This document shows, one piece after another, positions 1 through 35,578 of a DNA stretch of 64,000 bases. The DNA comes from Planctomycetota bacterium (lineage in GTDB: Bacteria > Planctomycetota > UBA8108 > UBA1146). Both the position numbers and the translations under genes were made by a program. The notes beneath the pieces are model-generated. The model did no database searches. It was not told the origin of the DNA and saw only the letters and a list, made by a program, of their open reading frames with translations. Positions within the stretch are counted from its first letter, which is position 1. The number at the start of each line of letters is the position of its first letter. The DNA lies in NCBI GenBank assembly GCA_014240375.1, contig JAAZXB010000012.1:15829-79828 (forward strand), read 5' to 3'.

Positions 1-946
1 GGGATCCGAGTCCACCGTTCCAGTTGAGGCTGGTCGCGGCACCATCGGTGTCTCCGGTCAGCGTTCCTGCGACCGTCGAGTATCCCACCTCTGCCACCGT
101 CTCCTCGGCAGTGTAACTGATCGTCTCTGCTCCGATGAAGGAGTAGACACAGCCGATGGTGATCCCGTCAGGATAGATGCTGGACTCTGCGAAACTGGGA
201 CCGTTGCCACCATCGAGGGCGGCGACCGGGCCAACCAGAGTCACCGAGGTCGCCTCGAGAAGGGTGGAATCGTGCCCCAGTCCCATCGAGAAACCCTGAG
301 TGGTGTTGGGGAAAGGGGCTCCGAGGGCACTGTTGTCCGTCTCGGAAACCGAGAGATCGGCAGTGAATCCGGAGATCCCATCGTCGGGATTGTAGGCCGC
401 AGTGACATCGGCGGCGGCGTAAGTGAACGTCGGACCAGGAATGGCGATCACTTCCATGTTGCCGGCATTCTGGGTCGGAACCAGGGATGCGCCGCCGACC
501 ACGGCAACCGTTGTGACCACCGGAGATCCGAGACTGTTGCAGAACTGAACCGGGTAATTACCCGGATTTACAGCACTGTCGATGGCGTAATCGGCACTCG
601 ACATGGTCAGCGTCTGCCCCTCGGGAATCGGGTTACAGCCGGTGAAGCAAATCACCACTCCCTGGGTCCATCCCCCCGGGAAAATCGACGACTGATTGAA
701 ATCGACTCCGTCACTCTCTTCGTTGTGGACGAGGCTGACGCTTCCGATGGAACTGTCATGACACATGCCAAAGGACCAGCCCTGAACTGCACCTCCGGAG
801 CCGGAGTTGTCGAGGGTCGCAGTGATGTTCATGGTGCCACCCGCGGCTGCGGAATCACTTCCGGCGCTGAAGATCTGAGCCTGAAGTGTCGGTGAGCCGA
901 ACAGGCCAAACAGAAGCCCGATCGTGACAAAATACATGCGATACAT
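1..946 (-). CDS. Secreted hypothetical protein (3'-truncated by window edge)
   Basis: My reverse-complement translation from the CAT at 944-946 reads MYRMYFVTIGLLFGLFGSPTLQAQIFSAGSDSAAAGG... A GGAGG lies 7 nt upstream and the N-terminus looks like a signal peptide. The ORF runs off the window start, so the ORF track did not list it. The +strand ORF 272-895 is its antisense. No family recognised. Confidence 0.5.
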   Translation of the reverse strand, partial: MYRMYFVTIGLLFGLFGSPTLQAQIFSAGSDSAAAGGTMNITATLDNSGSGGAVQGWSFGMCHDSSIGSVSLVHNEESDGVDFNQSSIFPGGWTQGVVICFTGCNPIPEGQTLTMSSADYAIDSAVNPGNYPVQFCNSLGSPVVTTVAVVGGASLVPTQNAGNMEVIAIPGPTFTYAAADVTAAYNPDDGISGFTADLSVSETDNSALGAPFPNTTQGFSMGLGHDSTLLEATSVTLVGPVAALDGGNGPSFAESSIYPDGITIGCVYSFIGAETISYTAEETVAEVGYSTVAGTLTGDTDGAATSLNWNGGLGS

Positions 947-1127
947 GAGCAGGATTCCTCCCAGAGAATAACCGTTCGAGGTGCCTACGATACAGGACCG
1001 GCAGGCATAACAAAAACATACTAACCTAGACAATAGGCTTGTTGATAATAGTGCCGGGTGGAGGGTATTGGTGCAAGTAGTTAATGTTAACTTGTGGGCA
1101 CGGAACGGAAAATGGAGCGACATCGGC

Positions 1128-1805
1128 CTAAAATGTGCGAATTGACAGGTTTCTGAATTGCAGGCGGGATCCATGAGACTGCAATTCGATCGCTCCTTTG
1201 TTAATGATCGGCTTTTCTCGGTCCCAGTAGTTCTCCAGCACCACATCATCGACCACTCGTTGGCCGTTGAGATCGACCGTGACCCGCTCTCCCTCCATGC
1301 GGATGCGGAAGTGATTCCACTGCCCGGTGGGAAGGTCGGCGGCGACTTGGGGCCGCGATGCGCCGGACTGGTTGTTGTAGAGACCTCCGGAACCCTCCGG
1401 ATGTTGCGCAATATCCCAGATTTGCACCTGGGGAGAGCCTCTCAGGTAGATGCCGCTATCTCCCCCCGGTTCGATCAGCCACTCCAGCTGCAACTCGAAA
1501 TCGGTGAATTGCTCGATGGTGCACAGGTGCGAGCCGTGGCCATCGAAGATCAGCATCCCCTGATCGACGCTCCAGTGCTCTCTCATCTGCTGGTCTGCCC
1601 GCTGCTGCGCCTCCGCTCGCGCCTCGGGTGCCAGCTGGGCCCGGCTGTAGGGGTTCCCCACCAGCCCCTGCCAGCCGCTCAGCGATTGGCCGTCGAACAG
1701 TGGCTGAAATGGCTCAGAGCGCGGATCGGTGGCGCCGCATCCCACCAGCAGTGAGAGGATCCCGAGCCACAGCAGCGGTGATCGGGCAGCCGTTTTGATC
1801 TTCAT
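1128..1805 (-). CDS. DUF1080 / 3-keto-disaccharide-hydrolase-like family lipoprotein (LamG-like jelly roll)
   Basis: The internal Met start gives MKIKTAARSPLLWLGILSLLVGC, which reads as a lipoprotein signal. The C-terminal KGAIELQSHGSRLQFRNLSIR is the typical end of DUF1080 proteins. The upstream 33 codons of the tracked ORF look non-coding. Confidence 0.7.
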   Translation of the reverse strand: MKIKTAARSPLLWLGILSLLVGCGATDPRSEPFQPLFDGQSLSGWQGLVGNPYSRAQLAPEARAEAQQRADQQMREHWSVDQGMLIFDGHGSHLCTIEQFTDFELQLEWLIEPGGDSGIYLRGSPQVQIWDIAQHPEGSGGLYNNQSGASRPQVAADLPTGQWNHFRIRMEGERVTVDLNGQRVVDDVVLENYWDREKPIINKGAIELQSHGSRLQFRNLSIRTF

Positions 1806-2023
1806 GATGAGTGTCCCCCTGGAGGAATATGGCACGGGAAGCGCCGCGAGACCAGCCCGGTCAGTCGTGGCCCCTCGCGGTCCGATGGCGTACGATCCTT
1901 CCACCGGACTCGAATCCAGTTGCGTTGAACCCCTTCGGGAGGAGTGGTGTATTGTCCGAAAATGGCCATGACGGTGCCGTTCTAGCCCCTCTGGACGGGG
2001 GACTGAAGTTCCGCCTGTCGATC

Positions 2024-3307
2024 ATGATGTTTCTCCAGTACGCCATCTGGGGCGCATGGTTACCGCTGCTGTGGGATCTGTTGATGAACGCCAAGGGCTT
2101 CACCGGTGCCGAGGTGGGGAATATCTTTGCAGTCGGGGCGGTGGGAGCGATCTTCGGCCCCTTCATCGCGGGTCAGGTCGCCGATCGCTGGTTCAGAACC
2201 GAGAGATTTCTGGCCCTCAGCCATCTGATCGGGGGAGGGCTGGCGTGGAAGATGGCCTCGCTCGATGATTACAACACCTTCTTCTGGTACGCCCTGATCT
2301 ATGGCCTGATCTATTCCCCGACACTGGCGCTGACCAACAGCCTCTCCTTCCATCACCTTACCGATCGGGATCGAGATTTCGGCAAGATCCGGTTGTGGGG
2401 TACCGTCGGCTGGATCGTCGCCGGAATCGGCATCGGCCAGTGGCTGTTGCATATGCATGCCGGTGGATCGTCGGATAACGCCAAGGCGCCGGAGGTGTAT
2501 GCGGGCATGGCGGATGCCTTCAGGCTCAGCGGCATCTGCGGCATCACCATGGGTTTCTTCTGTCTGTTCGGATTGCCCAGTACTCCTCCGAGCAAGTCTC
2601 AGGATGGAGACAATGCCACGGTAAAGGCGCTGGGCGAGGTCTCTCGTCAGCCGCTGCTGACGCTGTTTCTCATCGCAGTCCCTGTTTCCTGTATCCACCA
2701 GTTTTACTTCGTTCATACCGCGCCTTTTCTCAACACCATTCAGAGTGAACTGGGTGGCTCCGGGCTGGCCGCGAGCCTCAACTCCATCTTCGGCATTGGC
2801 GGTGGCGGATTGATGACGATCGGCCAGATGTCGGAGATCTTCGTACTGGCGATGATTCCGCTGCTGGCGCTGACGCTGAGTCGCAAGAAGTTACTGATGA
2901 TCGGGTTGCTCGCCTATGCCGCCCGGATGGCGCTCTTCGCCTACGCTCCGATGCTAGGTGGTGTGTACGGCATGTCACTGGTGATCCTCGGGGTGGCGCT
3001 TCATGGATTCTGTTTCGGCTGCTTTATCTTCGTCGCCTTCATGGTGGTCGATGAGGAGTGCTCGACGGATGTTCGGGCCAGCGCCCAGAACCTGTTCAAT
3101 CTGGTGATCATCGGTATCGGCATCATCGTCGGTAGCAAGGTCGCCAGTTCGGTGGCCGAGTGGGCGAGTGCCCGGGTCGCCGATGGAGCCCCTTGGTATG
3201 CAAAGACCACCGAAATGTTCCAGGTACCGATGGCCGCCAGCCTGGTGTGTCTGGTACTGCTGGCTCTGCTGTACCCCTCGACCGGAAAGAAGGAGATGTC
3301 ATCATGA
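2024..3307 (+). CDS. MFS transporter, nucleoside:H+ symporter (NHS, NupG/XapB-like) family
   Basis: [16 protein letters not shown]...[15 protein letters not shown]...[13 protein letters not shown] aligns by eye with the XapB/NupG N-terminal motifs (FLQYxxWGSWL, IVADKW, IRxFGTVGFI). About 12 TM segments. The first 71 codons of tracked ORF 1811-3307 are Arg/Pro-rich and look non-coding, so the start is moved to ATG 2024. The start is uncertain. Confidence 0.7.
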
Positions 3308-4263
3308 GACCAGAAGATCCCAACTGGAATCGCCGAGAGTTTTTCGGATGGAGTGTTGGATCGTTGGCTGTCATGGCGAGCCTGACCGGCTGTGCAGGCG
3401 TCGGTTACGGCGTCGTGAGTTCCCGCTGGGGAGCCGCTCCGAAGCCGAACTTCGATGTTTCACTGGCGCAGTGGTCCCTGCATCGCACCTTGCGAAGTGG
3501 AACGATGACGAATCTCGACTTCCCGCGCGTGACCCGTGAGGTGTACGGACTGGGCGCGGTCGAATACGTCAATTCTTTCTTCAAGGACAAGGCCAACGAC
3601 ACTGCGTACCTGACCGACTTGAAGAAACGTTGCACGGATCATGATATCCAGAGCCTGCTCATCATGTGCGATGGCGAGGGACGACTGGGGGATCCCGATG
3701 CCGGTGCCAGGAATCAGGCGGTGAAGAATCATCACCGCTGGGTCGACGCTGCGAAGTTCCTCGGTTGCCACTCGATACGGGTCAATGCCGCGAGCGCAGG
3801 GAGTTACGACGAACAGATGAAACTGGCAGCGGACGGATTGTCGTCGCTGACCGAATACGGCGCGGCCCAGGGGCTCAACGTGATCGTCGAGAATCACGGA
3901 GGGCTCTCCTCCAATGGTGCATGGTTGGCCGGGGTGATGAAGATGGTCGATCAGCCTCGCTGTGGAACCTTGCCCGACTTCGGAAACTTCAACCTCGGAG
4001 GTGGCAAGAGTTACGACCGCTACCTCGGTGTCGAGGAATTGATGCCGTACGCCAAGGCGGTCAGCGCCAAGAGTCACGCCTTTGATGAGAAGGGCAACGA
4101 GACTGCGACTGATTACAAGAGAATGATGAAGATCGTCATGGATGCGGGATACAGGGGTTTCGTCGGAATCGAGTTCGAGGGGGGCGGGGATGAAAAAACC
4201 GGCATCCTGGCGACCCGGGACCTGCTGTACCGGATCAAGAACGAATACTCGAGCAGTAGTTGA
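3304..4263 (+). CDS. Tat-exported sugar phosphate isomerase/epimerase (xylose-isomerase-like TIM barrel)
   Basis: ATG 3304 overlaps the MFS stop (ATGA), with AAGGAG 10 nt upstream. [24 protein letters not shown] is a twin-arginine signal. VIVENHGG...LPDFGNF is typical of PF01261-type TIM barrels. Confidence 0.75.
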
Positions 4264-4345
4264 AATACTCGATCCGTCGGGCCACTCGATCAGTGGTGAC
4301 GGTCGTGAAGAAATAGCAACAGATCTACCTTGAAGAGGAGACGAA

Positions 4346-5686
4346 ATGAACGATGAAGAAACGATGAAGCCGGCAGGGAATGACCGCCGTGACTTCCTCA
4401 AAGGCGCAGCACTGGCAGCCGGTGCCATCGCCATCAGTGGGAACAGTTTGCTCGGCTCGGAGCGGATCGGTGCCAAGACCGGTGTCATCGGTAGAGCCGC
4501 TCGTCGCACCCCCCTGGGCGACGATGGAGTGGTGCGAATGGGAGTCATCGGGACCGGAGGGATGGGCGGTGGCCACATCGATTCCTTCCTCCGCTTTGCC
4601 ACCCGTGGCGAGGACAAGGTCAAGATCGTTGCAGTCTGCGATGTCAACCATAAGCGCCGCGCTGTTGCCGAGAGTAAGATCAACAAGGCGCAAGGGGATG
4701 AGTGCACCGTCTACAACGATTACCTGGAACTGCTCGCTCGCGATGACATTCACGGAGTGCTGATCGCTTCCCCGGAACACTGGCACGCCCAGATGGCTGA
4801 AGATGCGTTGATGGCGGGCAAGGATGTGTACCTCGAGAAGCCGATGACGCTGCGTTTGCCGGAGGCGTTGCGCCTGCGTCAGGTGGTTCTCAATAACCCC
4901 GATGTGCTGCTCCAGGTCGGTACCCAGAAGATCATGCTGCCGAAGTACAAGGCGGCTCAGGCGATGGTTGCAGAGGGCGCGATCGGCAAGCCGACCTTCA
5001 GTCAGACCTCCTACTGTCGCAACTCCAGAGATGGGGAGTGGAAGTACTACGGCATCGATCCCGAGTGGAAGCCGGGGGTCAATGTCGACTGGGATCGCTG
5101 GTGTGGCCCGGCCGGAGTTCGCGACTGGAACCCGGCATTGTGTGCTCGCTGGCGTCGCTACAAGGATTTCTCGACCGGCATCGTCGGTGACCTGCTGGTT
5201 CACGAGATCACTCCGTTGATGATGGCGCTCGATCAGGGCTGGCCCACTCGGGTGGTGGCCACCGGTGGCCATTACATCGACAAGGCGATGGAAAATCACG
5301 ATCAGGTCAACTTGCAGATCCAGTTCGAGAAGGGGCACACCCTCATCGTGGCGGGGTCGACCTGCAACGAGATGGGTCTCGAGACGATGATCCGGGGCCA
5401 TCAGGGCACCATTTACCTCAACGGGGGCAACTGCAAGATGGTCCCTCAGCGCTTGTTCGCCGACGATGTCGAACCGCAAGAGGTGATCTGCGAGAGCATC
5501 GGCAATGATCAGGATGCGCTTCGTCGTAACTGGCTCGATTGCATTCGCACCCGTCGTCAACCCGATTCCAATGTCGATCTGGGGACCAAGGTGATCGTTG
5601 CGGTCGACCTGGCGACCCGTTCGATGTGGGAGGGCAAGGCGTTCGAGTTCGATCCTTCCTCGATGACTGCCACGAGCATCGGCTAG
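4346..5686 (+). CDS. Tat-exported Gfo/Idh/MocA family oxidoreductase
   Basis: GAGGAG precedes the ATG. The RRDFLKGAALAAGAIA Tat motif is followed by a Rossmann fold (MGVIGTGGMGGGH) and the EKP motif (VYLEKPMT). Confidence 0.85.
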   Translation: MNDEETMKPAGNDRRDFLKGAALAAGAIAISGNSLLGSERIGAKTGVIGRAARRTPLGDDGVVRMGVIGTGGMGGGHIDSFLRFATRGEDKVKIVAVCDVNHKRRAVAESKINKAQGDECTVYNDYLELLARDDIHGVLIASPEHWHAQMAEDALMAGKDVYLEKPMTLRLPEALRLRQVVLNNPDVLLQVGTQKIMLPKYKAAQAMVAEGAIGKPTFSQTSYCRNSRDGEWKYYGIDPEWKPGVNVDWDRWCGPAGVRDWNPALCARWRRYKDFSTGIVGDLLVHEITPLMMALDQGWPTRVVATGGHYIDKAMENHDQVNLQIQFEKGHTLIVAGSTCNEMGLETMIRGHQGTIYLNGGNCKMVPQRLFADDVEPQEVICESIGNDQDALRRNWLDCIRTRRQPDSNVDLGTKVIVAVDLATRSMWEGKAFEFDPSSMTATSIG

Positions 5687-5705
5687 TCGGTCGCGGGGAT
5701 ACGAG

Positions 5706-6608
5706 ATGATGCACAGGGGAGCTCTCCCGGCGATGGGAACTCGATTCGAGATCGTCGCCGGGGGAGCGGATCCCGCTCTTCTACGTGCTGCAGTGGAGGA
5801 AGCCTTCGAGGAGATCTCCACCTGTCATCGGTTGTGGAATGTTTTTTCCAACGACAGCACACTGGCACGAATCGATGCCGAATCTGCCGGTAAACCGGTG
5901 ACCATCGATGGGCTGACACTGGAACTGCTGCAGATCTGTTCCCGACTTCATCAGCAGACTGGCGGTTTCTTTGATCCGGTCATCGGAGCGGACCTGGCGG
6001 CCGGGGATCCGCGTCGCGCTCCGATCTTCGGTGTCGCTCCTCGAGATGGTTTCGGGGGAATCGAACTCGATGCTGCGGCTTCCACTGTACGGCGACACGA
6101 TTCTCGATTGAGGTTCGACCTGGGGGGGATCGCCAAGGGCTTTGCCTGTGATCTGGCCGCCTCGATCCTGCTCGAAGCGGGAGTGGAGTGTGCGTTGATC
6201 CATGGCGGCACCAGTAGCGTGGTGGCGTTGGGAGCGGCTCCGGGAAGGCAGGACTGGTCGATCGAGGTGAAGGGTTACGAGGGGAAGCAGATCGGACTGG
6301 TCGACCGTGCGATGGCGGTCACCTCCGCCGGAGGCGGCGGCGCAGGGGGCCACCTCATCGATCCCTTCAGCGGCGATCGACTCGGGCGTGATCGCGGTGG
6401 AGCGATGGTGGTCGGAGACAGTGCAACCGACTGTGATGGCTGGGCCACCGCACTGACTGTGGCTGGCTTTGAAGGAGATGTGGCCCGACAGATTCCTGCA
6501 ACGATGCAGGGCTATCGGCTCAACAATGAAGAATCGACTCACATGAAACCGGAAGCTGAGGCATCCGTGGAAGAGGAACGATGGAAACGGACCGTAGAGA
6601 TTTCTTGA
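5706..6608 (+). CDS. apbE: FAD:protein FMN transferase ApbE (no signal peptide)
   Basis: The AMGTRFEI (MGT motif), DLGGIAKGFA and AVTSAGGG motifs are characteristic of ApbE. The N-terminus starts directly at the catalytic core with no signal peptide or lipobox. It overlaps the next gene by 28 nt. Confidence 0.75.
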   Translation: MMHRGALPAMGTRFEIVAGGADPALLRAAVEEAFEEISTCHRLWNVFSNDSTLARIDAESAGKPVTIDGLTLELLQICSRLHQQTGGFFDPVIGADLAAGDPRRAPIFGVAPRDGFGGIELDAAASTVRRHDSRLRFDLGGIAKGFACDLAASILLEAGVECALIHGGTSSVVALGAAPGRQDWSIEVKGYEGKQIGLVDRAMAVTSAGGGGAGGHLIDPFSGDRLGRDRGGAMVVGDSATDCDGWATALTVAGFEGDVARQIPATMQGYRLNNEESTHMKPEAEASVEEERWKRTVEIS

Positions 6609-7810
6609 TCCAGAGCGCAGGTGCACTGGCCGGGATGGCACTTCTTCCAGGACTGGAAGCGATGGCGACGAATGTCCCGAAAGGCTATCCGGTTGCCATC
6701 ATCGGCATGGGCCGACAGGGTCGAGCGATTGCCGCAGAGTTGCAGAAACTGGGAGCGGCCATCGTGGCGATCTGTGACCTCGATGAGCCGCGATTGAGAA
6801 GTGCCAGGAGGCGCGTCTCGGATGCCACTCCCTATGCCGATTCGGATTCGTTGCTGACGACCGAGAAGGGAGTGGAGGCGGTCTTCATCGCCACCCCGAC
6901 CCACCAGCATCGGGCGATTGCCGAGGCGGCAGTGGCGGCGGGCAAGCATGTCTACTGCGAGGCGCCGCTGGCACATACCCTCGAGGATGCTCGGGCCATC
7001 GCCTTGGCCGCCCGTTCCAATCCGCGAGTTTTCCAGGTCGGGTTGTTGGCGCGATCCAATCCGGTCTACTCGCTGGCTCGCTCCTTCTTCCGCACCGAGG
7101 CGTTCCTCAAGTTGGTCTCGATGCGCGCCCAGAACTCACGGAAAACCTCCTGGCGTCAAGCGGCCTCGACTGCCGAGCGGCAAGCTCGTCTCGACTGGCG
7201 TCTCGACCCCACCGTGTCGCTCGGATTGCCGGGAGAATGGGGCACCCATCAGTTTGATGTCATTCATTGGTTCACCGGGCAGTATCCCCATCGTGTGTCG
7301 GGAAATGGCGGAGTGTTCGTGTGGGAAGATGGGCGCAAGGTCGCCGATACCGTCAACTTGACCCTCGAGTTTCCCAAGGGCCAGAGTCTCCAGTACCAGG
7401 CGACGCTGGGCAATTCATATGGTGGCCGCTACGAGGTGCTCCATGGCGTCAACTCCGCATTCAAACTGGCCTGGAGTCATGGCTGGATGTTCAAGGAAGC
7501 GGATGCGGCGACGCAGGGCTGGGAAGTCTACGCCAACCGTCAGCGCTTCTTCAATGACGAGGGGATCACCCTCATCGCTGATGCGACCAAACTCGCCAGT
7601 CAGAACAAGTTGAAGGATGGGGTTGGACTCCCCAATGATTCTCTCCATTACGGTGTGGCAGATTTCCTGCTGAGTTGTGCAGAGCAGATGAAGGTCAAGA
7701 CGGGGGTCAGTGAAGGACTGCGAGCGACTGCCGTGGGGATCGCTGCACAGCGTGCGGTGGTCGAGGGTGGCGTGATCGAGATCTCACAGGACGATCTGAA
7801 GGAGGCCTAG
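6581..7810 (+). CDS. Tat-exported Gfo/Idh/MocA family oxidoreductase
   Basis: The RRDFLIQSAGALAGMAL Tat signal is followed by a VAIIGMGRQGRA Rossmann fold and a CEAPLA (EKP-variant) motif. Confidence 0.8.
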   Translation: METDRRDFLIQSAGALAGMALLPGLEAMATNVPKGYPVAIIGMGRQGRAIAAELQKLGAAIVAICDLDEPRLRSARRRVSDATPYADSDSLLTTEKGVEAVFIATPTHQHRAIAEAAVAAGKHVYCEAPLAHTLEDARAIALAARSNPRVFQVGLLARSNPVYSLARSFFRTEAFLKLVSMRAQNSRKTSWRQAASTAERQARLDWRLDPTVSLGLPGEWGTHQFDVIHWFTGQYPHRVSGNGGVFVWEDGRKVADTVNLTLEFPKGQSLQYQATLGNSYGGRYEVLHGVNSAFKLAWSHGWMFKEADAATQGWEVYANRQRFFNDEGITLIADATKLASQNKLKDGVGLPNDSLHYGVADFLLSCAEQMKVKTGVSEGLRATAVGIAAQRAVVEGGVIEISQDDLKEA

Positions 7811-7813
7811 TCG

Positions 7814-8611
7814 ATGGGATCAATGCCAATCGCTGGAGAGGGGCTCAGTTCTCAACCGATGGGCATCCGGACCGGGATCAGCGCCCTGATCGTGGTGCTC
7901 TATATCGGACTCCTCGCCAGTGCGACGCACATGGTGAGTCACTTCGAGAATCGTGATGAACGACCCGGTTTCACCCTGGATGATGTGACCGGCGCGTACC
8001 ACGGTATCGACAGCCCTGGATTGCTCGGTACAGCCCTCGAAAGGGGACATCCGGAGACGCTGCCTGCGGCGCAGAGGGAGTTGCTACTGAGCTGGCTCAC
8101 GGGTGGGCGTATCGTCGAGGATTACGACAGCCTCGACCTGGAAATCCCACCCGCCGAGATCATCGATCTGAGTTGCATCGAATGTCACACCAGGGCCGCC
8201 GGTGCCGCGACCGGCTCGGTGATCCCACCGCTGGAGTACTTCGACGATATCAAGGAGATCGCCTTCTCCCGCAAGGTGCTGCCCACGCCGGTCGAGGTGC
8301 TGGCCGCCTCGACCCATGCCCATGCCCTGGCGCTGTCGATCCAGGGATTGGTGGTGATCGCACTGGCGTGCATGACACGCTGGCGGCGCCGCTGGATCTC
8401 CTTATTGATCGCCATCATGGGGCTGGGACTGGTCGGCGATGTAGGGGGTTGGTGGTTGGCCCGTTTCAGTCCATCCTGGACGCTGTGCATCATCGTCTCG
8501 GGGACGGCATACAGCGTTTCTCAGGGGATCTTGCTCGCCTCGGTGCTGGCGGATCTCTGGTGGCCCGGGGCCAGTACGAGCGGAACAAAACAGCAAACGG
8601 ACACGGAATAG
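7814..8611 (+). CDS. Small polytopic membrane protein with one CXXCH (c-type heme) motif
   Basis: AGGAGG lies 9 nt upstream. I count four hydrophobic helices (ISALIVVLYIGLLASA, LALSIQGLVVIALAC, ISLLIAIMGLGLVG, TLCIIVSGTAYSVSQGILLASVL). SCIECH sits in the loop between TM1 and TM2. No family recognised. Confidence 0.6.
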   Translation: MGSMPIAGEGLSSQPMGIRTGISALIVVLYIGLLASATHMVSHFENRDERPGFTLDDVTGAYHGIDSPGLLGTALERGHPETLPAAQRELLLSWLTGGRIVEDYDSLDLEIPPAEIIDLSCIECHTRAAGAATGSVIPPLEYFDDIKEIAFSRKVLPTPVEVLAASTHAHALALSIQGLVVIALACMTRWRRRWISLLIAIMGLGLVGDVGGWWLARFSPSWTLCIIVSGTAYSVSQGILLASVLADLWWPGASTSGTKQQTDTE

Positions 8612-8616
8612 GAGTC

Positions 8617-9891
8617 ATGATGAGCCAGCAGAAGCCAGGTGCGAGCCGTCGAGAGTTTTTGAAGGGTGCTGCGGTCGCTTCAGCGGCGACCTTGTTGACC
8701 CCCTCACTGTTGCAGGGCAAGGCGCATGCCGATGGCTCGGATGTGATCCGGGTTGGATTGATCGGCTGTGGAGGCCGAGGATCCGGTGCCGCCAACAACT
8801 GCGTGAACTCCTCCGAAGGAGTCAAGATCACCGCGATGGCGGATCTGTTCCGCGACCGTCTCGACTCGAGTCGAAACAACCTCAAGGGGCTGGGGGATCG
8901 CTTCGATGTTCCCGAGGAGCGCTGCTTCGTCGGCTTTGATGCCTACCAGCAACTGCTCGACTCCGGTGTCGACATGGTGATCCTGGCGACGCCTCCCGGA
9001 TTCAGACCGATCCACTTCGAGGCGGCTGTGGCTGCGGGTAAGCATGTCTTCATGGAGAAGCCGGTCGCCACCGATGGGCCGGGAATCCGCAAGGTACTGG
9101 CTGCCGCCAAGGTCGCCAAGCGCAAGGGGCTGGCGGTGGTCGCCGGAACCCAGCGTCGTCATCAGAAGAGCTATATCGAAACGATGCAGCAGATCCACGA
9201 CGGTGCCATCGGAGAACTGGTCGGCGCTCAGGTCTACTGGAATCAGGGGGGACTGTGGGTGACGCGTCAAACCCCGCAGATGTCCGACATGGAGTGGCAG
9301 GTGAGAAACTGGCTCTACTTTGCCTGGGCCAGCGGCGATCACATCGTCGAGCAGCACATCCACAACATCGATGTGATGAACTGGGCCTTCGGTGGACCTC
9401 CCGAGAAGGCCAACGCCATGGGTGGCCGCCAGGTGCGTACCGGTCCGGAGTACGGCCATATCTTCGACCACTTCGCAGTCGAGTACGTCTACCCGGGTGG
9501 AGTGAGAACCCTCAGTGAATGCCGTCAGATCGACGGCTGCTGGAACCGGGTTTCGGAGAAGATCATCGGCACCAAAGGGGTCGCCAATCCCTCCGGACGC
9601 ATCACCGGCGAAAAGAACTGGAGCGCCCCTGGCGGTGGAAGAAACGCCTATGTTCAGGAACATGCCGATCTGATCGCCAGTATCCGCGCCAATGAACCGC
9701 TGAATGAGGCGGAGCGGGTCGCGATGAGTACCCTGACCGCCATCATGGGTCGGATGAGTGCTTACACCGGCAAGGAAGTCACCCTCGAGTTCGCACTCAA
9801 CTCGCAGAACAGCCTGCACCCCGAGAAGTGGCAGTTTGGTGATCTGGCGCTGCCTGCAGTTGCGATCCCCGGACGCACGGCTCTGGTCTAG
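8617..9891 (+). CDS. Tat-exported Gfo/Idh/MocA family oxidoreductase
   Basis: AGGAG is 4 nt upstream of the ATG. The SRREFLKGAAVASAATLL Tat signal is followed by a VGLIGCGGRGSGAA Rossmann fold and the FMEKPVA (EKP) motif. The tracked ORF 8173-9891 extends upstream as an in-frame read-through of gene 7814-8611 and was trimmed. Confidence 0.85.
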   Translation: MMSQQKPGASRREFLKGAAVASAATLLTPSLLQGKAHADGSDVIRVGLIGCGGRGSGAANNCVNSSEGVKITAMADLFRDRLDSSRNNLKGLGDRFDVPEERCFVGFDAYQQLLDSGVDMVILATPPGFRPIHFEAAVAAGKHVFMEKPVATDGPGIRKVLAAAKVAKRKGLAVVAGTQRRHQKSYIETMQQIHDGAIGELVGAQVYWNQGGLWVTRQTPQMSDMEWQVRNWLYFAWASGDHIVEQHIHNIDVMNWAFGGPPEKANAMGGRQVRTGPEYGHIFDHFAVEYVYPGGVRTLSECRQIDGCWNRVSEKIIGTKGVANPSGRITGEKNWSAPGGGRNAYVQEHADLIASIRANEPLNEAERVAMSTLTAIMGRMSAYTGKEVTLEFALNSQNSLHPEKWQFGDLALPAVAIPGRTALV

Positions 9892-9900
9892 GGGGCAGCG

Positions 9901-10821
9901 TTGGATCGCAGAAATTTTATCTCCGCGGCAGCTCTGGGAGTGGTCGGCAGTAGCTGGGTGGGTGCCATGAAACCGGGGGCAGAAATGTCGACCCCAGCGG
10001 ACTCTTCGCTTCAGCCTCGCCTCAAGAAGTCTCTCAAGATCGGCATGGCGAATGTCGGAAAGACACTGGAGGAGAAGTTCGAAATTCTCAAGGAAGTCGG
10101 ATTTGACGGAGTCGAACTCGATTCGCCTTCCGCTCTCGACTGGCGAGAAGTGTTGCGCGCGAAGGCGGCGACCGGTCTCGAGATTCCCGGAGTGGTGTGC
10201 TCCTCACACTGGGGAAAGCCACTTTCTGCGACGGACGAAAAGGTCCGTCAGCAGGGGATCGAGGGAGTCGAAACCGCGCTGAGAGATTGCCGCCTCTTCG
10301 GTGGCACCACGGTGCTGGTGGTGCCGGGAGTTTGCCGAGATGGAGTCACCTACGAGCAGGCGTGGAAACGATCGACCGAGGCGATTCATCAGTTGATTCC
10401 TCTGGCGGCAGAATTGCGCGTTCGAATCGCCTTCGAGAATGTCTGGAATGATTTCATCACCGATGCCGATGAAGCGGTGAAGTATGTCGATCAGTTCAAC
10501 AGTCCATGGGTCGGCTGGTACTTTGATACCGGTAACATCGTTCGTTATGGCAGTCCCCCCGAGTGGGTGAGAAAACTGGGCGCACGAACCATCAAGGTCG
10601 ACATCAAGGATTATTCCCTCTCCCGCAAGGAGAAGGATGGAGTGTGGGCCGGATTCGCCTGCAAGATCGGAGATCCGGACTCATCGGTTCAGTGGTCTGA
10701 AACGATGAAGGCGCTCGTGGAGATAGGCTACCGTGGTTGGGGGTCTGCCGAGGTGAGCGGCGGAGATCAAGAGCGCCTGGCCGATATTTCCCGTCGTATG
10801 GATGACGTGTATTCCAGGTAG
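9901..10821 (+). CDS. Tat-signal sugar phosphate isomerase/epimerase (xylose-isomerase-like TIM barrel)
   Basis: A TTG start sits 7 nt after a GGGGG run. RRNFISAAALGVVGS is a Tat motif. IAFENVW...WYFDTGNIVRYG...IKVDIKD is typical of the family. Confidence 0.7.
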   Translation: MDRRNFISAAALGVVGSSWVGAMKPGAEMSTPADSSLQPRLKKSLKIGMANVGKTLEEKFEILKEVGFDGVELDSPSALDWREVLRAKAATGLEIPGVVCSSHWGKPLSATDEKVRQQGIEGVETALRDCRLFGGTTVLVVPGVCRDGVTYEQAWKRSTEAIHQLIPLAAELRVRIAFENVWNDFITDADEAVKYVDQFNSPWVGWYFDTGNIVRYGSPPEWVRKLGARTIKVDIKDYSLSRKEKDGVWAGFACKIGDPDSSVQWSETMKALVEIGYRGWGSAEVSGGDQERLADISRRMDDVYSR

Positions 10822-10921
10822 TGGTTTCCCGTGGAAGCCTCTATCATCGAAGAGTACCCCCGACTCGTATCGGGACGAGAGAACCTGACCGCAGTATTGA
10901 TCCCCATGAGAGGTCATCTTC

Positions 10922-13900
10922 ATGTCTCTGACGACTAAAAGCGTGTTCCTGTTGCTTGCACTGTCCCTCTGCTCTGGCCTATCGGGACAGGTTAGCGCGG
11001 ATTCCTGGGTCAACTGGGAAAGCCCTCCTGTTCATCCACTGGAACTGGTTTCGGGCAGTGACCTGCTGCTGGCAACCAACACGGCAGATTCCCATCTGGA
11101 GATCTACAACATCAGTTCCGGTGTCCCGGTGCCGCTCATGTCGGTGCCGGTAGGACTCGATCCGGTATCGGTGCGAGCTCGCAATGCCACCGAGGCGTGG
11201 GTGGTGAATCGAATTTCAGACACCATCAGTATCGTCGACCTTCAAAATGGCTATGTCCGATGGACATTGATGACAGCGGATGAACCTGCGGATGTGATCT
11301 TTGCTGGCACGCCGGAACGCGCTTATGTTTCCTGCTCGGGAACCGATGAGATCATGGTGTTCGATCCATCCGATGTGACGGCCTCCCCCGAGATCATTTC
11401 CTTGGTGGGTGAGGAGCCTCGGGCACTTGCCAAGAGCCCCGACGGATCGATCGTCTACTGCGCCATCTTTGAATCGGGCAATGGCACCACCGTGCTCGGC
11501 GGTGGTTTCGATATCGGGGCCAATGTCATCGCTTTTCCGCCCAATGTCGTCAATGATCCAGCAGGGCCTTATGGTGGCGTCAATCCTCCGCCCAATTCCA
11601 ATGGCGAGTTTGAGCCACCAATTAACCCCAGCATCGGTACACCTCCACCCGTGGCACTGATCGTCAAGAAGATCGACCAGGATGTGTGGGTCGATGATAA
11701 CGGAAGTGACTGGGGAGATCTGGTCAGCGGGCCACAGGCAGGCCTCTCGGGTCGCCAGGTCGGCTGGGATCTGGCAGATCATGATGTCGCGGTCATCGAT
11801 ACCACCGACAACTCGGTCACATACATCCAGTCGCTGATGAACATCTGCATGGCGATCGGTGTTCGTCCGACCGATGGAGCCATCTCGGTGGTCGGAACAG
11901 AGGCATTCAATCACATCCGCTACGAACACAATCTCAACGGGAACTTCATCGATGTGCTGCATGCGATGATCGCCCCGGGAGGTGCGGCCATTGCGCAGAT
12001 TGATGATCTCAATCCGCATCTACCCGCCAGTGGTGTCAGTGTTCCCCTCGATCAGCAGTTGCTGAGCATAGGAGATCCGCGTGCCATCGTCTGGAATGCC
12101 GCAGGTACCGAGGCTTTTGTCGCAGGCAAGGGATCCGGGAATGTGGTCCGGCTCCAGGCGGACGGAACCCGGGATCTTGTGGCGGATCCCATCGACGTGG
12201 GTGCCGGTGCGACCGGTCTCGCCCTCGATGAATCGAGGGGAAAGCTCTACGTGCTGGAGCACTTCGATGCCTCGGTCGCTTCCATCGATATTCAGACCGG
12301 CACCGTCAGTGGTCGAGAGACCTATCACGATCCCACCGGAGCAGTGGTGCGCTCGGGTCGAAAGTTCCTCTACGACACACACCTCACCTCCGGAATGGGC
12401 CAGGTCTCCTGTGCTTCTTGCCATGTCGATGCGCGGACCGATCGCCTGGCGTGGGATCTGGGAGATCCGGCGGGAGAGGAGGCTCCATTCGTCGATGTCT
12501 GCAACATGGGTCTGCCGCTTCCGGGTGTTCCTCCGTGTGATGATTTCCATCCGATGAAGGGGCCGATGTTGACCCAGACATTGCAGGACATCATCGGGAA
12601 GGAACCTCATCACTGGCGTGGAGACAAATTTGGTATCGAGGCCTTTGGTGGCGCATTCATGTCGATCAATGGGGATGATCTCCCGGTCGGAGGGGTAGCG
12701 ATGCAGGAGTTCGAGGCATACCTCGCCAGCATCTATTTTCCGCCCAATCCGTTTCGCGGCATGAGAAATGAGTTGCCCACCGCATTGCCACTCGACGGCC
12801 ATTTCACGACCGGTCGCTTCGGTTCTGAAGGTGAAATACTGGGCAGTGGAAATGCAGAGACAGGGCTGGATCTTTATCGCAATGCTGGCCTCGATGGAGG
12901 TTTGCAGTGTGTGACCTGCCACGCGCTTCCCATCGGAATCGGACCCAACTCTGAATTCAGTTCTGGTTTTGTCATGGCAACGATTCCCGACGGTCCGATG
13001 GGGGAAAAGCACCATGGTATGGTCAGTGTCGACGGTTCCGTTCAGCGGAACATCAAAATCCCTCAGTTGCGAAACGTCTACAAGCGCACCGGTTTCAACA
13101 CCACCCAACTGCTCAATACAACCGGATTTGGATACCTGCACGACGGGTCGGTGGATTCTGTTGAACGCTTCATCAGTGAGCCGGCCTTCTCGGTGACCAA
13201 TGATCAACAGATTGCAGATCTGACCGCCTTCATGCTGGCATTCTCTGGATCCGACCTACCAGAGGGAAGTAACCAGACTCCCTTCGAACCACTCGGGTCG
13301 CCGAGCCAGGATTCGCACGCTGCAGTGGGGATGCAGATCACCCTGGACGAGACCAATAGAGATGACGCTGAAGTGCTCGCAGATGCGCAGATCATCCTCG
13401 ATGAGGCGAGTCTGGGCAGGGTCGGTGTGATCGCCAAGGCGTGGCAAGGCGGATTCCTTCGTGGATGGGTAATGGTGGGCGCCGGCACCGGTGTGTTCCA
13501 GTCCGACATCCTCGCAGAAGCCACCACCTTCACCGACCTTCGCAACTCGGCGGTAGCCGGTGCGGAAGTGACCTTCACCGTGGTTCCGACCGGTTCGGCG
13601 CTGAGGATGGGGATCGATCGCGATCTCGATGGTCATTTTGATGGGGACGAACGCCTTGCCTGTTCCGATCCTGCCGATGCACTGTCTCAACCTGGATCCT
13701 GCTCTGGCGTGTTCTTTGTCCGTGGCGACGGAAATGGCGACGGCGCACTTGATATCTCCGACGCTATTTCAACGCTAACGCTCCTGTTCAGCGGTGGCAG
13801 TTCCAGCACCACCTGTGAGGATGGTCACGACAGTAATGATGATGGGGCCATCGATATCGGAGACCCGATCGCTCTGCTCTCGTACCTCTTTGCTGGAGCC

Positions 13901-13984
13901 GCAGAGTTGCCGGCCCCGGGGGCCAACTGCGGTGAGGATCAGACGGGCGACACCTTGCAGTGTAGCGAGACCGTCTGTCCCTGA
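10922..13984 (+). CDS. Secreted fusion protein: N-terminal beta-propeller-like region, di-heme cytochrome c peroxidase (CCP/MauG)-like domain, C-terminal dockerin-like module
   Basis: The signal peptide is MSLTTKSVFLLLALSLCSGLSGQVSA. FLYDTHLTSGMGQVSCASCH matches the CCP-family first-heme signature, and a second CXXCH is present (CVTCH). The C-terminus carries two Ca-binding dockerin-type repeats (GDGNGDGALDISDAISTLTLLF, DSNDDGAIDIGDPIALLSYLF) and then a CGEDQTGDTLQCSETVCP tail. Confidence 0.8.
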   Translation: MSLTTKSVFLLLALSLCSGLSGQVSADSWVNWESPPVHPLELVSGSDLLLATNTADSHLEIYNISSGVPVPLMSVPVGLDPVSVRARNATEAWVVNRISDTISIVDLQNGYVRWTLMTADEPADVIFAGTPERAYVSCSGTDEIMVFDPSDVTASPEIISLVGEEPRALAKSPDGSIVYCAIFESGNGTTVLGGGFDIGANVIAFPPNVVNDPAGPYGGVNPPPNSNGEFEPPINPSIGTPPPVALIVKKIDQDVWVDDNGSDWGDLVSGPQAGLSGRQVGWDLADHDVAVIDTTDNSVTYIQSLMNICMAIGVRPTDGAISVVGTEAFNHIRYEHNLNGNFIDVLHAMIAPGGAAIAQIDDLNPHLPASGVSVPLDQQLLSIGDPRAIVWNAAGTEAFVAGKGSGNVVRLQADGTRDLVADPIDVGAGATGLALDESRGKLYVLEHFDASVASIDIQTGTVSGRETYHDPTGAVVRSGRKFLYDTHLTSGMGQVSCASCHVDARTDRLAWDLGDPAGEEAPFVDVCNMGLPLPGVPPCDDFHPMKGPMLTQTLQDIIGKEPHHWRGDKFGIEAFGGAFMSINGDDLPVGGVAMQEFEAYLASIYFPPNPFRGMRNELPTALPLDGHFTTGRFGSEGEILGSGNAETGLDLYRNAGLDGGLQCVTCHALPIGIGPNSEFSSGFVMATIPDGPMGEKHHGMVSVDGSVQRNIKIPQLRNVYKRTGFNTTQLLNTTGFGYLHDGSVDSVERFISEPAFSVTNDQQIADLTAFMLAFSGSDLPEGSNQTPFEPLGSPSQDSHAAVGMQITLDETNRDDAEVLADAQIILDEASLGRVGVIAKAWQGGFLRGWVMVGAGTGVFQSDILAEATTFTDLRNSAVAGAEVTFTVVPTGSALRMGIDRDLDGHFDGDERLACSDPADALSQPGSCSGVFFVRGDGNGDGALDISDAISTLTLLFSGGSSSTTCEDGHDSNDDGAIDIGDPIALLSYLFAGAAELPAPGANCGEDQTGDTLQCSETVCP

Positions 13985-14017
13985 AGAACTGTGAGCCGCT
14001 GAGGCGATCGGAACCGA

Positions 14018-15847
14018 TCAGGAATAGAGGGGCCAGAAGTAGGGGATCAAGGTCCCTGCGATGGCCCAGATGATCAGTACCAGCGGGGCACCCACCTTGG
14101 CAAAGTCACTGAAGCGGTAGCCTCCGGCACCGTAGACCAGTGTGTTGGTCTGGTAACCGATGGGGGTCAGAAACGACAGTGAAGCGCCGAACGCCACCGC
14201 CATCACGAAGGGGATCGGCGAGACATCTCGCTCCATGGCGAGTCCCAATTGAGTAGAGATCTTCAGTGCGACCGGAACCAGCACTGCGGCGACCGCTGCA
14301 TTGGAAATCATCTCGGTGAGTAATGCTGCGGCGACCAGCGTCACCACGATCAGTCCGTAGGGGCCGACGTAAGGTTGCAGGTGAAGCACCTGGTCTGCCA
14401 GCCAGCCGGCGGTCTGGGTCGTCTCCATCGCTTTCCCTAGCGCCAGCGTTCCAGCGATCAGCACCAGGACTTTCCACTGCACCGCCTCGTAGATCTTGGT
14501 TCCGCTGATGCAGCCGGTCACCACCATCGCCACGGCGCCTGCCAGAGCGACCGTGGCCATCGGCCAGATCTGGGTGGAGAGTAATCCGATGATGGCGATG
14601 AGGATCAGGATCGCCAGCGGGGCCTTGCCCTTGCGCACCACCACATCGTCGACCCCGGACATCAGGACCAACCCCTCCTCGCCGCGAATCCTATCGAGGC
14701 CCTCGGGAGTCCCCTGGATCAGCAAGACGTCGCCGATGCGCAGCGGGTGTTCGCTGATCTTGCTGCGCATGTGCATGCCGTGGCGTTGCAAGCCGATCAC
14801 GTTGAGCCCGAAGCGGCGGCGCAATTCGACAGAACCGAGTAACTGGCCCACATAGGGACTGCTCGGAAGTACCAGCAACTCCGCCAGTTGCGCCTCCTTC
14901 TGAGTGGTACTTCCCTGCGTCTCCGAGACGATCTCCGACAAACTGGCCACTCCCGTTTGATCTTGAACTTCCATCAGATCTTCGATGGTGCCGGAGATCA
15001 CCAGAGCGTCACCGAGATCGAGCATCTCATCATCGAGTGGTGGCCAAAGGATGTCTTCACCGCGGATGATCTGGAGGATACGAACCTTGCCAGCGGTGGC
15101 GAGGATGGTGTCGCCGAAGCGCTTTCCGATCAGTTCTCCACCGCGGATTTCGATCTCTGTGATGTACTCCCGGTGGCGACGATCGCCTCCCAGGCTGGCG
15201 AGGGAGGTGATTGTCTGGCGTACTGGAAGAAGTTTCGGAGCGACCGTGAGCAGATAGACCAGGCCCACTGCGGCGAGAATCGCACCCATCTTGGTGAACT
15301 CGAACATGCCGAGTTCGATGCCGGCACTCTCCCGCGCGATGGATGCCACCAGGATGTTGGTGGAGGTTCCGATCAGGGTACATGTGCCACCGAGGATAGC
15401 TGCGTAGGAGAGGGGAATCAGAACCGCAGATGGGTTCATGCCACTGCGCAGGCAAATTCCCAGAACCACCGGGATGAACATCGCCACGACCGGGGTGTTA
15501 TTGAGAAATGCGCTGGCGATCAGCACGATGATCAGGATCAACGCGGTCATGATTCGATGGCTTCCGCGACTCCACTCCTGCAAATGATTGGACAGGAAAC
15601 CGAGAGCCCCGGTACGGAGCAGCCCCTCACTGACGATGAACAGGGCGCCCACTCCGATCACCGCCGGATGGCCAAAGCCCTCCAGCGCGTCCTCGATGGG
15701 GAGGATGCCCCGAGTGGTGAGGTAGAGCAGCAGTGAGATCGCAATGACATCGACCGAGAGAACCTCACTGGCGAAGAGCAACAACGCGGCAGCGAGCAGG
15801 ATCAACACCTCGATGATCTGAGGATTCAGCACCAAATCAGTCGTCAA
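14018..15847 (-). CDS. SLC13/DASS family anion:Na+ symporter with two central TrkA-C (RCK_C) domains
   Basis: A TTG start (MTTDLVLNPQIIEVLILL...) is preceded by GGAAGGGAAG. About 12 TM segments flank two soluble TrkA-C-like inserts. The 5' 74 codons of tracked ORF 14018-16069 look non-coding. Confidence 0.75.
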   Translation of the reverse strand: MTTDLVLNPQIIEVLILLAAALLLFASEVLSVDVIAISLLLYLTTRGILPIEDALEGFGHPAVIGVGALFIVSEGLLRTGALGFLSNHLQEWSRGSHRIMTALILIIVLIASAFLNNTPVVAMFIPVVLGICLRSGMNPSAVLIPLSYAAILGGTCTLIGTSTNILVASIARESAGIELGMFEFTKMGAILAAVGLVYLLTVAPKLLPVRQTITSLASLGGDRRHREYITEIEIRGGELIGKRFGDTILATAGKVRILQIIRGEDILWPPLDDEMLDLGDALVISGTIEDLMEVQDQTGVASLSEIVSETQGSTTQKEAQLAELLVLPSSPYVGQLLGSVELRRRFGLNVIGLQRHGMHMRSKISEHPLRIGDVLLIQGTPEGLDRIRGEEGLVLMSGVDDVVVRKGKAPLAILILIAIIGLLSTQIWPMATVALAGAVAMVVTGCISGTKIYEAVQWKVLVLIAGTLALGKAMETTQTAGWLADQVLHLQPYVGPYGLIVVTLVAAALLTEMISNAAVAAVLVPVALKISTQLGLAMERDVSPIPFVMAVAFGASLSFLTPIGYQTNTLVYGAGGYRFSDFAKVGAPLVLIIWAIAGTLIPYFWPLYS

Positions 15848-15992
15848 TCGTTCTTCCCTTCCAGGGATCGTTGCGAGCCCGCATCTCTGATGTAGGCTGA
15901 GAGGATACCGGGGAGAGTGTCGCTCTCTCCAGTCGATTTCTGGAAGCGGGCCTCGAAGGCTCGCAGTTGGCACCCTGCACGAATGGAGCCCG

Positions 15993-35305: not shown

Positions 35306-35578
35306 ATGCCGAGACGCCGCCATGGTGGAGCCGGGAGAGGCTCCGAACCCGATGACGCCACCGATCAAGATGCCGCAGGCTGGCTTCTCGATGGCCTGGC
35401 GATCCGTCCGCCTCTCGAGGAGTTCCGGCGACTGTTCGAGATGAAGAAGAGAGCTTTTGAAGGCAAGGTCGATGCCGAGAGTTTACGCAAGTACGAGCAG
35501 GCGCGTCGTCTCGGAGAGAAATTCATCGCAGAGCAGGACTACGACCAGGAGACGGGTCCGAGGGGGGCGTCTTGCTGA
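35306..35578 (+). CDS. Small hypothetical ORF (doubtful)
   Basis: 90 codons with no recognisable family and rare codons (tta, aga). It overlaps the likely ribosome binding site and start of the next gene. It may simply be a 5' UTR. Confidence 0.2.
   Translation: MPRRRHGGAGRGSEPDDATDQDAAGWLLDGLAIRPPLEEFRRLFEMKKRAFEGKVDAESLRKYEQARRLGEKFIAEQDYDQETGPRGASC

Follow-up and report, generated by a model that had tools for sequence, protein, structure and literature searches.

How periplasmic sugar dehydrogenases of the Gfo/Idh/MocA family pass on the electrons of their bound cofactor is the question raised by a gene cluster of a marine bacterium from the Planctomycetota (lineage UBA8108; UBA1146). 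The 3-keto-glycoside pathway comprises a pair of Gfo enzymes together with a lyase of the TIM-barrel type and a DUF1080 lyase/hydratase (PMC8121099; bioRxiv 10.1101/2024.03.25.586180). Its periplasmic Gfo enzymes of the BT2158/AL3 type hold nicotinamide adenine dinucleotide (NAD) tightly and depend on its re-oxidation, for which the authors of these studies suggest cytochromes (PMC8121099; bioRxiv 10.1101/2024.03.25.586180). The re-oxidation of NAD in vivo in periplasmic Gfo dehydrogenases is a question posed by those who characterized the pathway, and the cluster described here is a concrete and conserved candidate for the link. It is located in a stretch of 64,000 nucleotides of contig JAAZXB010000012.1 (GenBank assembly GCA_014240375.1, positions 15,829 to 79,828 of the forward strand), which is called the window in the following and whose first nucleotide is position 1. 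The core of the cluster consists of four genes encoding two Gfo/Idh/MocA proteins (GfoA and GfoB), a member of the ApbE family of flavin adenine dinucleotide (FAD):protein flavin mononucleotide (FMN) transferases, and a membrane protein with a heme-binding motif (TMcyt). We give an even chance to the reading that GfoA and GfoB form a dehydrogenase pair that is flavinylated before its export by the twin-arginine translocation (Tat) system and that delivers electrons via a membrane-bound heme c to the respiratory chain, as part of a pathway of the 3-keto-glycoside type.

Genes were called from a listing of open reading frames (ORFs) together with Pfam and NCBIfam profile scans of the window proteins. 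The four core genes follow each other on the plus strand. GfoA (446 aa, 4346-5686; PF01408, PF22725, PF02894, PF19051, and TAT_signal; leader motif DRRDFL) is followed by ApbE (300 aa, 5706-6608; PF02424, E-value 5e-34), GfoB (409 aa, 6581-7810; PF01408, PF22725, and PF02894; leader motif DRRDFL), and TMcyt (7814-8611), a four-helix membrane protein of 265 aa with the motif CIECH, which belongs to the Pfam family PF27139 (Aq_1264_TM). The genes for ApbE and GfoB overlap by 28 nt. All four belong to a run of nine plus-strand genes at 2024-13984 that are separated by gaps of at most 100 nt or overlap. A contiguous run on one strand had been described in the initial annotation of the window, and this description holds for the nine genes, whereas the flanking DUF1080 gene is divergent and lies on the minus strand, unlike the rest of the run. 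In a promoter and terminator scan of 900-14500, no terminator-like sites were found on the plus strand between 3300 and 14000, which is a weak negative result as the scan gave fewer sites overall than shuffled sequences and was uninformative. We read the region as a single operon around the GfoA-ApbE-GfoB-TMcyt module.

The arrangement of these four genes is highly conserved. When the ten window proteins were searched with tblastn in Planctomycetota, with one genome per species and counting loci whose sequence reaches at least 3.9 kb upstream of TMcyt, the order GfoA-ApbE-GfoB-TMcyt on the same strand was found in 58 of 60 species-level loci. Compared with the window proteins, the median identity is 59% for GfoA, 38% for ApbE, 56% for GfoB, and 47% for TMcyt, and the order persists down to about 40% identity. 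The two exceptions are L030, in which about 1.7 kb (2862-4529) are inserted between ApbE and GfoB, and L085, in which GfoA was undetected. The cassette was recovered independently from distant TMcyt homologs (38-47% identity) and from GfoB homologs, and TMcyt is encoded directly 3' of Gfo-ApbE-Gfo in essentially every genome that carries it. Co-occurrence of the 7814-8611 protein with Tat-Gfo genes in other genomes, which the initial annotation had proposed as a test, is therefore strongly positive. In L091 and L092, the cassette is on its own, surrounded by unrelated genes and accompanied by neither a TIM barrel nor a transporter.

The remaining genes of the run are far less constant. Within 10 kb of the core, genes for the NHS-type transporter were found in 31 of the 43 full loci (at least 9 kb on both sides), genes for the TIM-barrel protein TIMa in 28, DUF1080 genes in 25, genes for a third Gfo protein (GfoC) in 18, genes for the second TIM-barrel protein (TIMb) in 14, and genes for a CCP-like protein in 11. 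The transporter, TIMa, and DUF1080 are variable accessories (58-72% of the full loci), and GfoC, TIMb, and the CCP-like protein are confined to the clade closest to the window (26-42%). As these accessories vary while the core is constant, the functional unit is GfoA-ApbE-GfoB-TMcyt, and the rest of the run is variable periphery. A built-in electron outlet had been suggested for the run as a whole; this interpretation is partly supported, as its main intuition of an outlet seems right, but the unit has to be narrowed down to the four-gene core.

Relatives of TMcyt were found in 125 species in a scan of one genome per species. The best 80 of these are almost all metagenome-assembled genomes (MAGs) of Planctomycetota (Phycisphaerales and a UBA1146-like lineage). 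The closest relatives, with 87-98% protein identity, are marine MAGs labeled as Planctomycetes bacterium UBA1146 or Planctomycetota. One locus with a typical planctomycete gene order (L016) comes from a MAG labeled 'Bacillota bacterium', and one homolog (P0079) is labeled Pyrinomonadaceae; both labels are probably binning or labeling errors.

At their N-termini, 65 of 65 GfoA, 77 of 77 GfoB, 31 of 31 GfoC, 22 of 22 TIMb, and 42 of 44 TIMa orthologs carry a twin-arginine motif of the RRx[FL] type ahead of a hydrophobic stretch. As a background, the same loose RR pattern occurs in about 11-12% of the upstream regions of ApbE, the membrane protein, and the transporter. The twin arginines (R14/R15 in GfoA, R5/R6 in GfoB) do not vary, and the TAT_signal profile TIGR01409 scores above its cutoff of 16.7 bits with GfoA (24.6 bits) and GfoC (23.5 bits). 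All three Gfo proteins and both TIM barrels are predicted Tat substrates, and the earlier interpretation of their RR motifs as Tat signals stands at the level of sequence, given the conservation in orthologs against this background. TIMa additionally joins its twin-arginine motif with a lipobox (LTGC), which is found in 7 of 44 orthologs.

All three Gfo proteins pass the Pfam gathering scores for Gfo/Idh/MocA domains. In GfoA, which holds a GFO_IDH_MocA_C2 domain, the catalytic EKP and DxxxH motifs are both kept. Invariant residues among 64 orthologs are R14 R15, E164-K165-P166, D282..H286, and G337-[S/A]-T339, and G69, G71, and G74 of the GxGxxG motif are invariant as well. The best PDB matches of GfoA are 8TDF and 8TDH (E-value 1.5e-18, residues 77-306). 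Judged by these motifs, GfoA is plausibly an active sugar dehydrogenase and the presumed catalytic subunit.

GfoB keeps the NAD-binding motif with the invariant residues G42xG44xxG47 as well as D66. It has lost the catalytic lysine: the respective motif is E127-A128-P129 in the window protein, and in 77 of 77 orthologs it reads E127-[A/T/S/M]128-P129 and never contains K. In addition, H223 of the Asp/His pair is replaced by Q in 15 of 77 orthologs. As GfoB lacks the catalytic lysine, the three Gfo paralogs are not equivalent. A block of GfoB reaching from W302 to P351 is nearly invariant (WMFKEADAxTQGWEVYANRQ...GITLIA[D/G]AT[K/Q]L...GxGLP). In the AlphaFold2 (AF2) monomer model, residues 299-349 have a predicted local distance difference test (pLDDT) score below 50, whereas the Rossmann domain scores above 90. 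In such a model, an invariant segment of low pLDDT (298-351) is a pattern that would be typical of an interface or of a cofactor-bearing arm. A loop of the BT2158-type enzyme AL3 enters the active site of its partner (bioRxiv 10.1101/2024.03.25.586180), which offers a structural parallel for an arm that extends from one subunit of a Gfo dimer to the other.

ApbE of the cassette matches PF02424 with 118.5 bits at a cutoff of 25.6 bits. Aligned with Ftp of T. pallidum and ApbE of V. cholerae, it keeps DLGGIAKGF, the catalytic histidine in H216-LIDP, and the metal site TDxDxxAT248A; D138, G140, K144, G145, H216, and T248 are each at least 95% conserved. The N55/Y position, which separates transferases from pyrophosphatases, is aromatic. 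Every ortholog starts at most 12 residues before the mature-domain motif AMGTRFE and, thus, none has a signal peptide. A secretion or lipoprotein signal, which is typical though not universal for ApbE proteins, is lacking here. ApbE had been regarded as embedded among the other genes of the run. It is indeed present there, and it is more than embedded, as it is an obligate and always signal-less member of the core. Flavinylation of soluble enzymes by cytoplasmic ApbE proteins is known from K. pneumoniae (PMC12052999). In some loci, a second, longer ApbE is encoded a few kb from the cassette (L003 at 12119-13126 on the minus strand, and also L028, L041, L057, and L086), and these second copies suggest that the ApbE of the cassette is a dedicated paralog.

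A canonical flavinylation motif is not conserved across the ten proteins, the window ORFs, and all core orthologs. Two invariant threonines in degenerate motifs are candidate sites for FMN attachment. T336 of GfoB is located in I-A-[D/G/E]-A-T, with D in 67, G in 7, and E in 3 orthologs and with the sequence AGAT in 7 orthologs. T339 of GfoA is located in A-G-[S/A]-T, with S in 60 and A in 4 orthologs and with AGAT in 4 orthologs. Of these, T336 is slightly favored because it lies inside the flexible invariant segment of the non-catalytic paralog. In published mutagenesis, the exchange of D for A in the motif had a minor effect, and the exchanges of G for A or of A for V left about 50% flavinylation. 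T188 of TMcyt was set aside as a flavinylation site as it is not conserved throughout the family and has no motif.

For TMcyt, the assignment to PF27139 is given by precomputed Pfam matches of P0001, which is 100% identical to TMcyt, and of 88 of 96 close homologs. Among 24 aligned homologs, C121, C124, H125, H79-P80, H168, H170, D209, and W213 are invariant. The AF2 model (pLDDT 89.9) has transmembrane (TM) helices at residues 16-44, 160-186, 192-215, and 222-249, and residues 45-159 form a helical extracytoplasmic domain bearing C121-I-E-C124-H125. An arginine-rich loop (TRWRRRW) between TM2 and TM3 is located on the side opposite the CXXCH loop, which places the CXXCH domain in the periplasm. 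TMcyt thus has a periplasmic-side CXXCH, as expected of a c-type cytochrome, in both its sequence and the model, from which we infer that heme c is attached to it.

The PF27139 family comprises 920 clusters at 50% identity, and its distant members keep CXXCH and, at the outer ends of TM2 and TM3, the motifs HxH and D..GWW, respectively. A common partner or function for these distant members was rejected because their genomic contexts differ or their contigs are too short. One of them is encoded in L089 (1661-12602) amid genes for Hdr-like (CCG, Fer4) and NuoE/NuoF-like (2Fe-2S_thioredx, Complex1_51K) proteins, and another one, P0217, follows a Metallophos gene. These contexts indicate that the wider Aq_1264_TM family is used in other redox contexts.

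The following sequence of events can be proposed, of which the steps up to export rest on sequence and synteny and the later ones are inferred. GfoA and GfoB would bind NAD tightly as they fold in the cytoplasm, and the signal-less ApbE would attach FMN to T336 of GfoB or T339 of GfoA before export. The folded and cofactor-loaded proteins would then be exported by the Tat system, probably as a heterodimer, and may then bind to TMcyt on the outward-facing side of the membrane. There, GfoA with its catalytic Lys, Asp, and His would oxidize a hydroxy group of a sugar or glycoside, probably at C3. The bound, non-exchangeable NADH may be re-oxidized by the tethered flavin. Flavins are the standard splitters of a hydride into single electrons for heme, and the flavin of the Gfo pair would deliver electrons singly to the TMcyt heme c, which is probably ligated by two histidines. 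From there, electrons could flow to the menaquinone pool or to a terminal oxidase. The TIM barrels, the DUF1080 protein, GfoC, and the NHS-type transporter would process the keto-sugar and import the products. In its most specific form, this proposal describes a new class of respiratory dehydrogenases, in which the lysine-less GfoB carries FMN at a non-canonical site, re-oxidizes the NADH of GfoA, and feeds a mono-heme Aq_1264_TM protein; this form is possible but doubtful.

Several observations weigh against the proposed respiratory function of the cassette. All genomes are MAGs of uncultured organisms. TMcyt has one heme motif and no recognized quinone site, and distant Aq_1264_TM proteins occur in unrelated contexts (Metallophos, Hdr/NuoF-like, or isolated). 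The motif D-x-x-[S/T]-G-A-[S/T] was found neither in the core proteins nor in any window ORF, and the candidate sites T336 and T339 match two of the four core motif positions in most orthologs. On the substrate side, the best NCBIfam match of GfoA is the BT_2158_fam (NF058561), yet this match is remote: at a cutoff of 750 bits, GfoA reaches 103 bits, GfoB 76 bits, and GfoC 50 bits. The scores of the window proteins with the NCBIfam equivalogs for glycoside, disaccharide, inositol, and levoglucosan dehydrogenases and for sugar epimerases are all far below the cutoffs as well, so no substrate is assigned. Finally, the characterized relatives are redox-neutral and do without a cytochrome (bioRxiv 10.1101/2024.03.25.586180). 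The initial annotation had stated that tightly NAD-bound periplasmic dehydrogenases need an electron acceptor, which is too strong given that the characterized systems recycle their bound NAD by reducing 3-ketoglucose. The cassette might likewise belong to a redox-neutral 3-keto-glycoside pathway resembling BT2156-BT2159/AL1-4, with ApbE and TMcyt serving in maturation, anchoring, or stabilization. The parts list with two or three Tat-Gfo proteins, a TIM barrel, and DUF1080 fits this cytochrome-free pathway, as does the lack of a canonical flavinylation motif in the core proteins and window ORFs. It is nevertheless unlikely, because the core order is kept in 58 of 60 genomes and the cassette is also found where TIM barrel and DUF1080 are missing. 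Furthermore, the invariant CXXCH and the kept catalytic residues of ApbE argue for functional redox cofactors, and GfoB without its catalytic lysine is an unlikely 3-ketoglucose reductase.

The same conserved cassette would also suit a reversed electron flow, in which electrons from quinol or cytochromes reach the Gfo pair via TMcyt and the flavin and drive the reduction of a keto-sugar or another carbonyl in the periplasm. Known ApbE-dependent systems mostly send electrons outward to extracytosolic reductases (PMC8238504), and the PDB matches of GfoA show that the Gfo/Idh/MocA family includes ketoreductases. However, electron transfer from menaquinol or heme c to a couple at the level of NAD would be uphill according to established redox potentials. 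GfoA is also closer to glycoside 3-dehydrogenases than to reductases, and the adjoining lyase/hydratase families act on oxidized (3-keto) sugars, so that this direction appears quite improbable. Equally little probability is given to the explanation that TMcyt is a heme-based sensor or a generic anchor, that ApbE has its target elsewhere, such as subunits of NQR or RNF, and that the synteny reflects co-regulation. This would agree with the unrelated contexts of distant Aq_1264_TM members, with the missing flavinylation motif in the cassette, and with the second ApbE near some loci. A housekeeping ApbE, however, would be expected to have a signal peptide and to be encoded beside its targets, whereas the ApbE of the cassette is signal-less and encoded between Tat-Gfo genes, and the second copies rather point to a dedicated paralog. 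TMcyt itself shows no regulator or signaling domain.

The accessory genes surround the core on both sides. The three Gfo proteins, the two TIM barrels with RR leaders, the DUF1080 lipoprotein, the NHS-type transporter of the MFS, the signal-less ApbE, and the 265-aa CXXCH protein that had been named in the initial annotation were all recovered from the ORFs and the Pfam and NCBIfam scans. The DUF1080/3keto-disac_hyd lipoprotein (1128-1805, minus strand; PF06439, E-value 4e-42) has the lipobox LVGC in its leader MKIKTAARSPLLWLGILSLLVGC, and its PDB relatives include the DUF1080 structures 8TDA/8TDE, 8RR2, and 9FBE. About 2.5 kb downstream of the stand-alone cassette in L092, a fusion of ThuA with two DUF1080/3keto-disac_hyd domains (604 aa) is encoded at 11542-13356 on the plus strand. 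The Nuc_H_symport transporter (about 2024-3307, plus strand; PF03825, E-value 1e-82) reaches 228 bits with TIGR00889 at a cutoff of 446 bits and is therefore not a nucleoside-permease equivalog. The start of its ORF at 1811 is too far 5', as the Pfam match sets in near 2003 and no in-frame ATG occurs before 2024; the start is thus uncertain between 2003 (CTG) and 2024 (ATG). TIMa (3304-4263, plus strand; leader motif NRREFF) is a xylose-isomerase-like protein (AP_endonuc_2, PF01261, E-value 5e-23) whose closest structure is PDB 4OVX ('Xylose isomerase domain protein TIM barrel', E-value 2e-112), for which no function is annotated.

GfoC (8617-9891, plus strand; PF01408, PF22725, PF02894, and TAT_signal; leader motif SRREFL) follows the core. 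Its mechanically called ORF starts at 8173, which gives an overlap of about 440 nt with the TMcyt gene; the true start codon is the ATG at 8617, 6 nt past the TMcyt stop codon and just ahead of the Tat leader. The catalytic motif is present (...HVFMEKPVA...), and the PDB relatives of GfoC are inositol dehydrogenases and the periplasmic aldose-aldose oxidoreductase 5A02. TIMb (9901-10821, plus strand; PF01261, E-value 1e-37), another xylose-isomerase-like protein, has the motif DRRNFI in its leader MDRRNFISAAALGVVG, and its weak relatives are sugar 3-epimerases and the 3-keto-D-glucoside 4-epimerase 6WN6.

The last gene of the plus-strand run (10922-13984) encodes the secreted CCP-like protein of 1020 aa, which has a propeller and two CXXCH motifs (CASCH and CVTCH). 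Its match to CCP_MauG is marginal, with 26.8 bits at a cutoff of 25.6 bits over only about 25 residues. At the N-terminus, it has weak matches to YncE/lactonase-like beta-propellers, and its C-terminal Asp-rich repeats 'DGNGDGALDISD / DSNDDGAIDIGD' resemble dockerin or EF-hand motifs. The protein is found only in loci whose TMcyt has about 54% identity or more, where it follows TIMb. Being confined to this close clade, it was rejected as an electron outlet of general importance. The role of a candidate outlet that had been suggested for this adjacent cytochrome can thus not be generalized, with genes in 11 of 43 full loci.

Further downstream (14018-39150), ten large ORFs were scanned, which encode unrelated housekeeping and transport functions and no more Gfo, TIM-barrel, or cytochrome genes. 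Among them are a CitMHS/TrkA_C transporter (14018-16069, minus strand), a DAO-family FAD oxidoreductase (15993-17129), GatA/GatB amidotransferase (19510-22415), an H+-pyrophosphatase (29667-31784), and an SMC-like protein (35572-39150).

Among known systems, BT2156-BT2159/AL1-4 of Bacteroides and relatives resemble the window in their parts: a Tat-exported NAD-bound Gfo protein, a second Gfo paralog, a TIM-barrel lyase, and DUF1080 are encoded together, and all are periplasmic. The parts list of the window thus matches the published pathway (PMC8121099; bioRxiv 10.1101/2024.03.25.586180), in support of the proposed link to 3-keto-glycoside cleavage. In contrast to the window, BT2156-BT2159/AL1-4 have neither ApbE nor a membrane cytochrome, and NAD is recycled via 3-ketoglucose. 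Conversely, the second Gfo of the window core lacks the catalytic lysine, and TIM barrel and DUF1080 are absent from some loci with the core. Periplasmic, Tat-exported Gfo/Idh/MocA proteins with non-dissociable NADP are also represented by the GFOR of Zymomonas mobilis (1OFG) and the aldose-aldose oxidoreductase of Caulobacter (5A02). These enzymes differ from the cassette in their ping-pong mechanism with a second sugar as hydride acceptor, and they work without a flavin, a heme, or a partner in the membrane.

LacABC/FAD-glucoside 3-dehydrogenase (G3DH) and the membrane-bound fructose and gluconate dehydrogenases resemble the cassette in function. They are periplasmic and Tat-dependent, form keto sugars (3-keto or other), and transfer electrons to a cytochrome c subunit and the respiratory chain. 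Unlike the cassette, enzymes of the LacABC/G3DH type have a catalytic FAD subunit of the GMC family and a multi-heme cytochrome, which is soluble or anchored, and no ApbE. A GMC or multi-heme subunit of this type is absent from the cassette according to the Pfam and NCBIfam scans, and the resemblance is functional only.

A dedicated ApbE beside membrane-bound or extracytosolic redox proteins, combining flavin and cytochrome modules, is found in NQR, RNF, NosR, PplA/FmnB, DUF2271, and DUF3570 systems (PMC8238504). There, ApbE is secreted and has canonical [S/T]GA[S/T] targets, whereas the ApbE of the window is cytoplasmic and has neighbors that are Tat substrates with degenerate motifs. Gfo proteins, Planctomycetes, or Tat are not mentioned in this study (PMC8238504). 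The cytoplasmic ApbE of Klebsiella pneumoniae and its soluble fumarate reductase (PMC12052999) are similar to the cassette in that the ApbE is signal-less and the target is a soluble oxidoreductase. The fumarate reductase, however, remains cytoplasmic and carries a canonical motif in its FMN_bind domain.

The literature searches retrieved no paper joining ApbE with Gfo/Idh/MocA proteins and none on aq_1264. For 3-ketoglycosides in combination with cytochrome c, DUF1080, or Tat, PMC8121099 was the sole relevant paper, and the cassette is not described there. Among the matches listed (12 of 30) for Gfo/Idh/MocA proteins in combination with Planctomycetes, cytochrome c, and twin-arginine, none names Gfo/Idh/MocA, and none describes the cassette. 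This agrees with the earlier remark that no characterized version of the arrangement is known. In its set of subunits, the cassette looks like an undescribed variant of the respiratory sugar dehydrogenases of the periplasm.

For the membrane cytochrome family PF27139, the cassette provides a genetic set of partners, and it points to a non-canonical ApbE target and to flavinylation ahead of Tat export. If the proposal is true in its most specific form, it would answer how tightly NAD-bound periplasmic Gfo proteins can be re-oxidized without a sugar co-substrate. To our knowledge, it would then also provide the first Tat-exported ApbE substrate and the first function assigned to PF27139. For marine and freshwater Planctomycetota, above all Phycisphaerae and the UBA1146 lineage, such a dehydrogenase would make the initial oxidation in extracytoplasmic glycan breakdown a source of respiratory energy.

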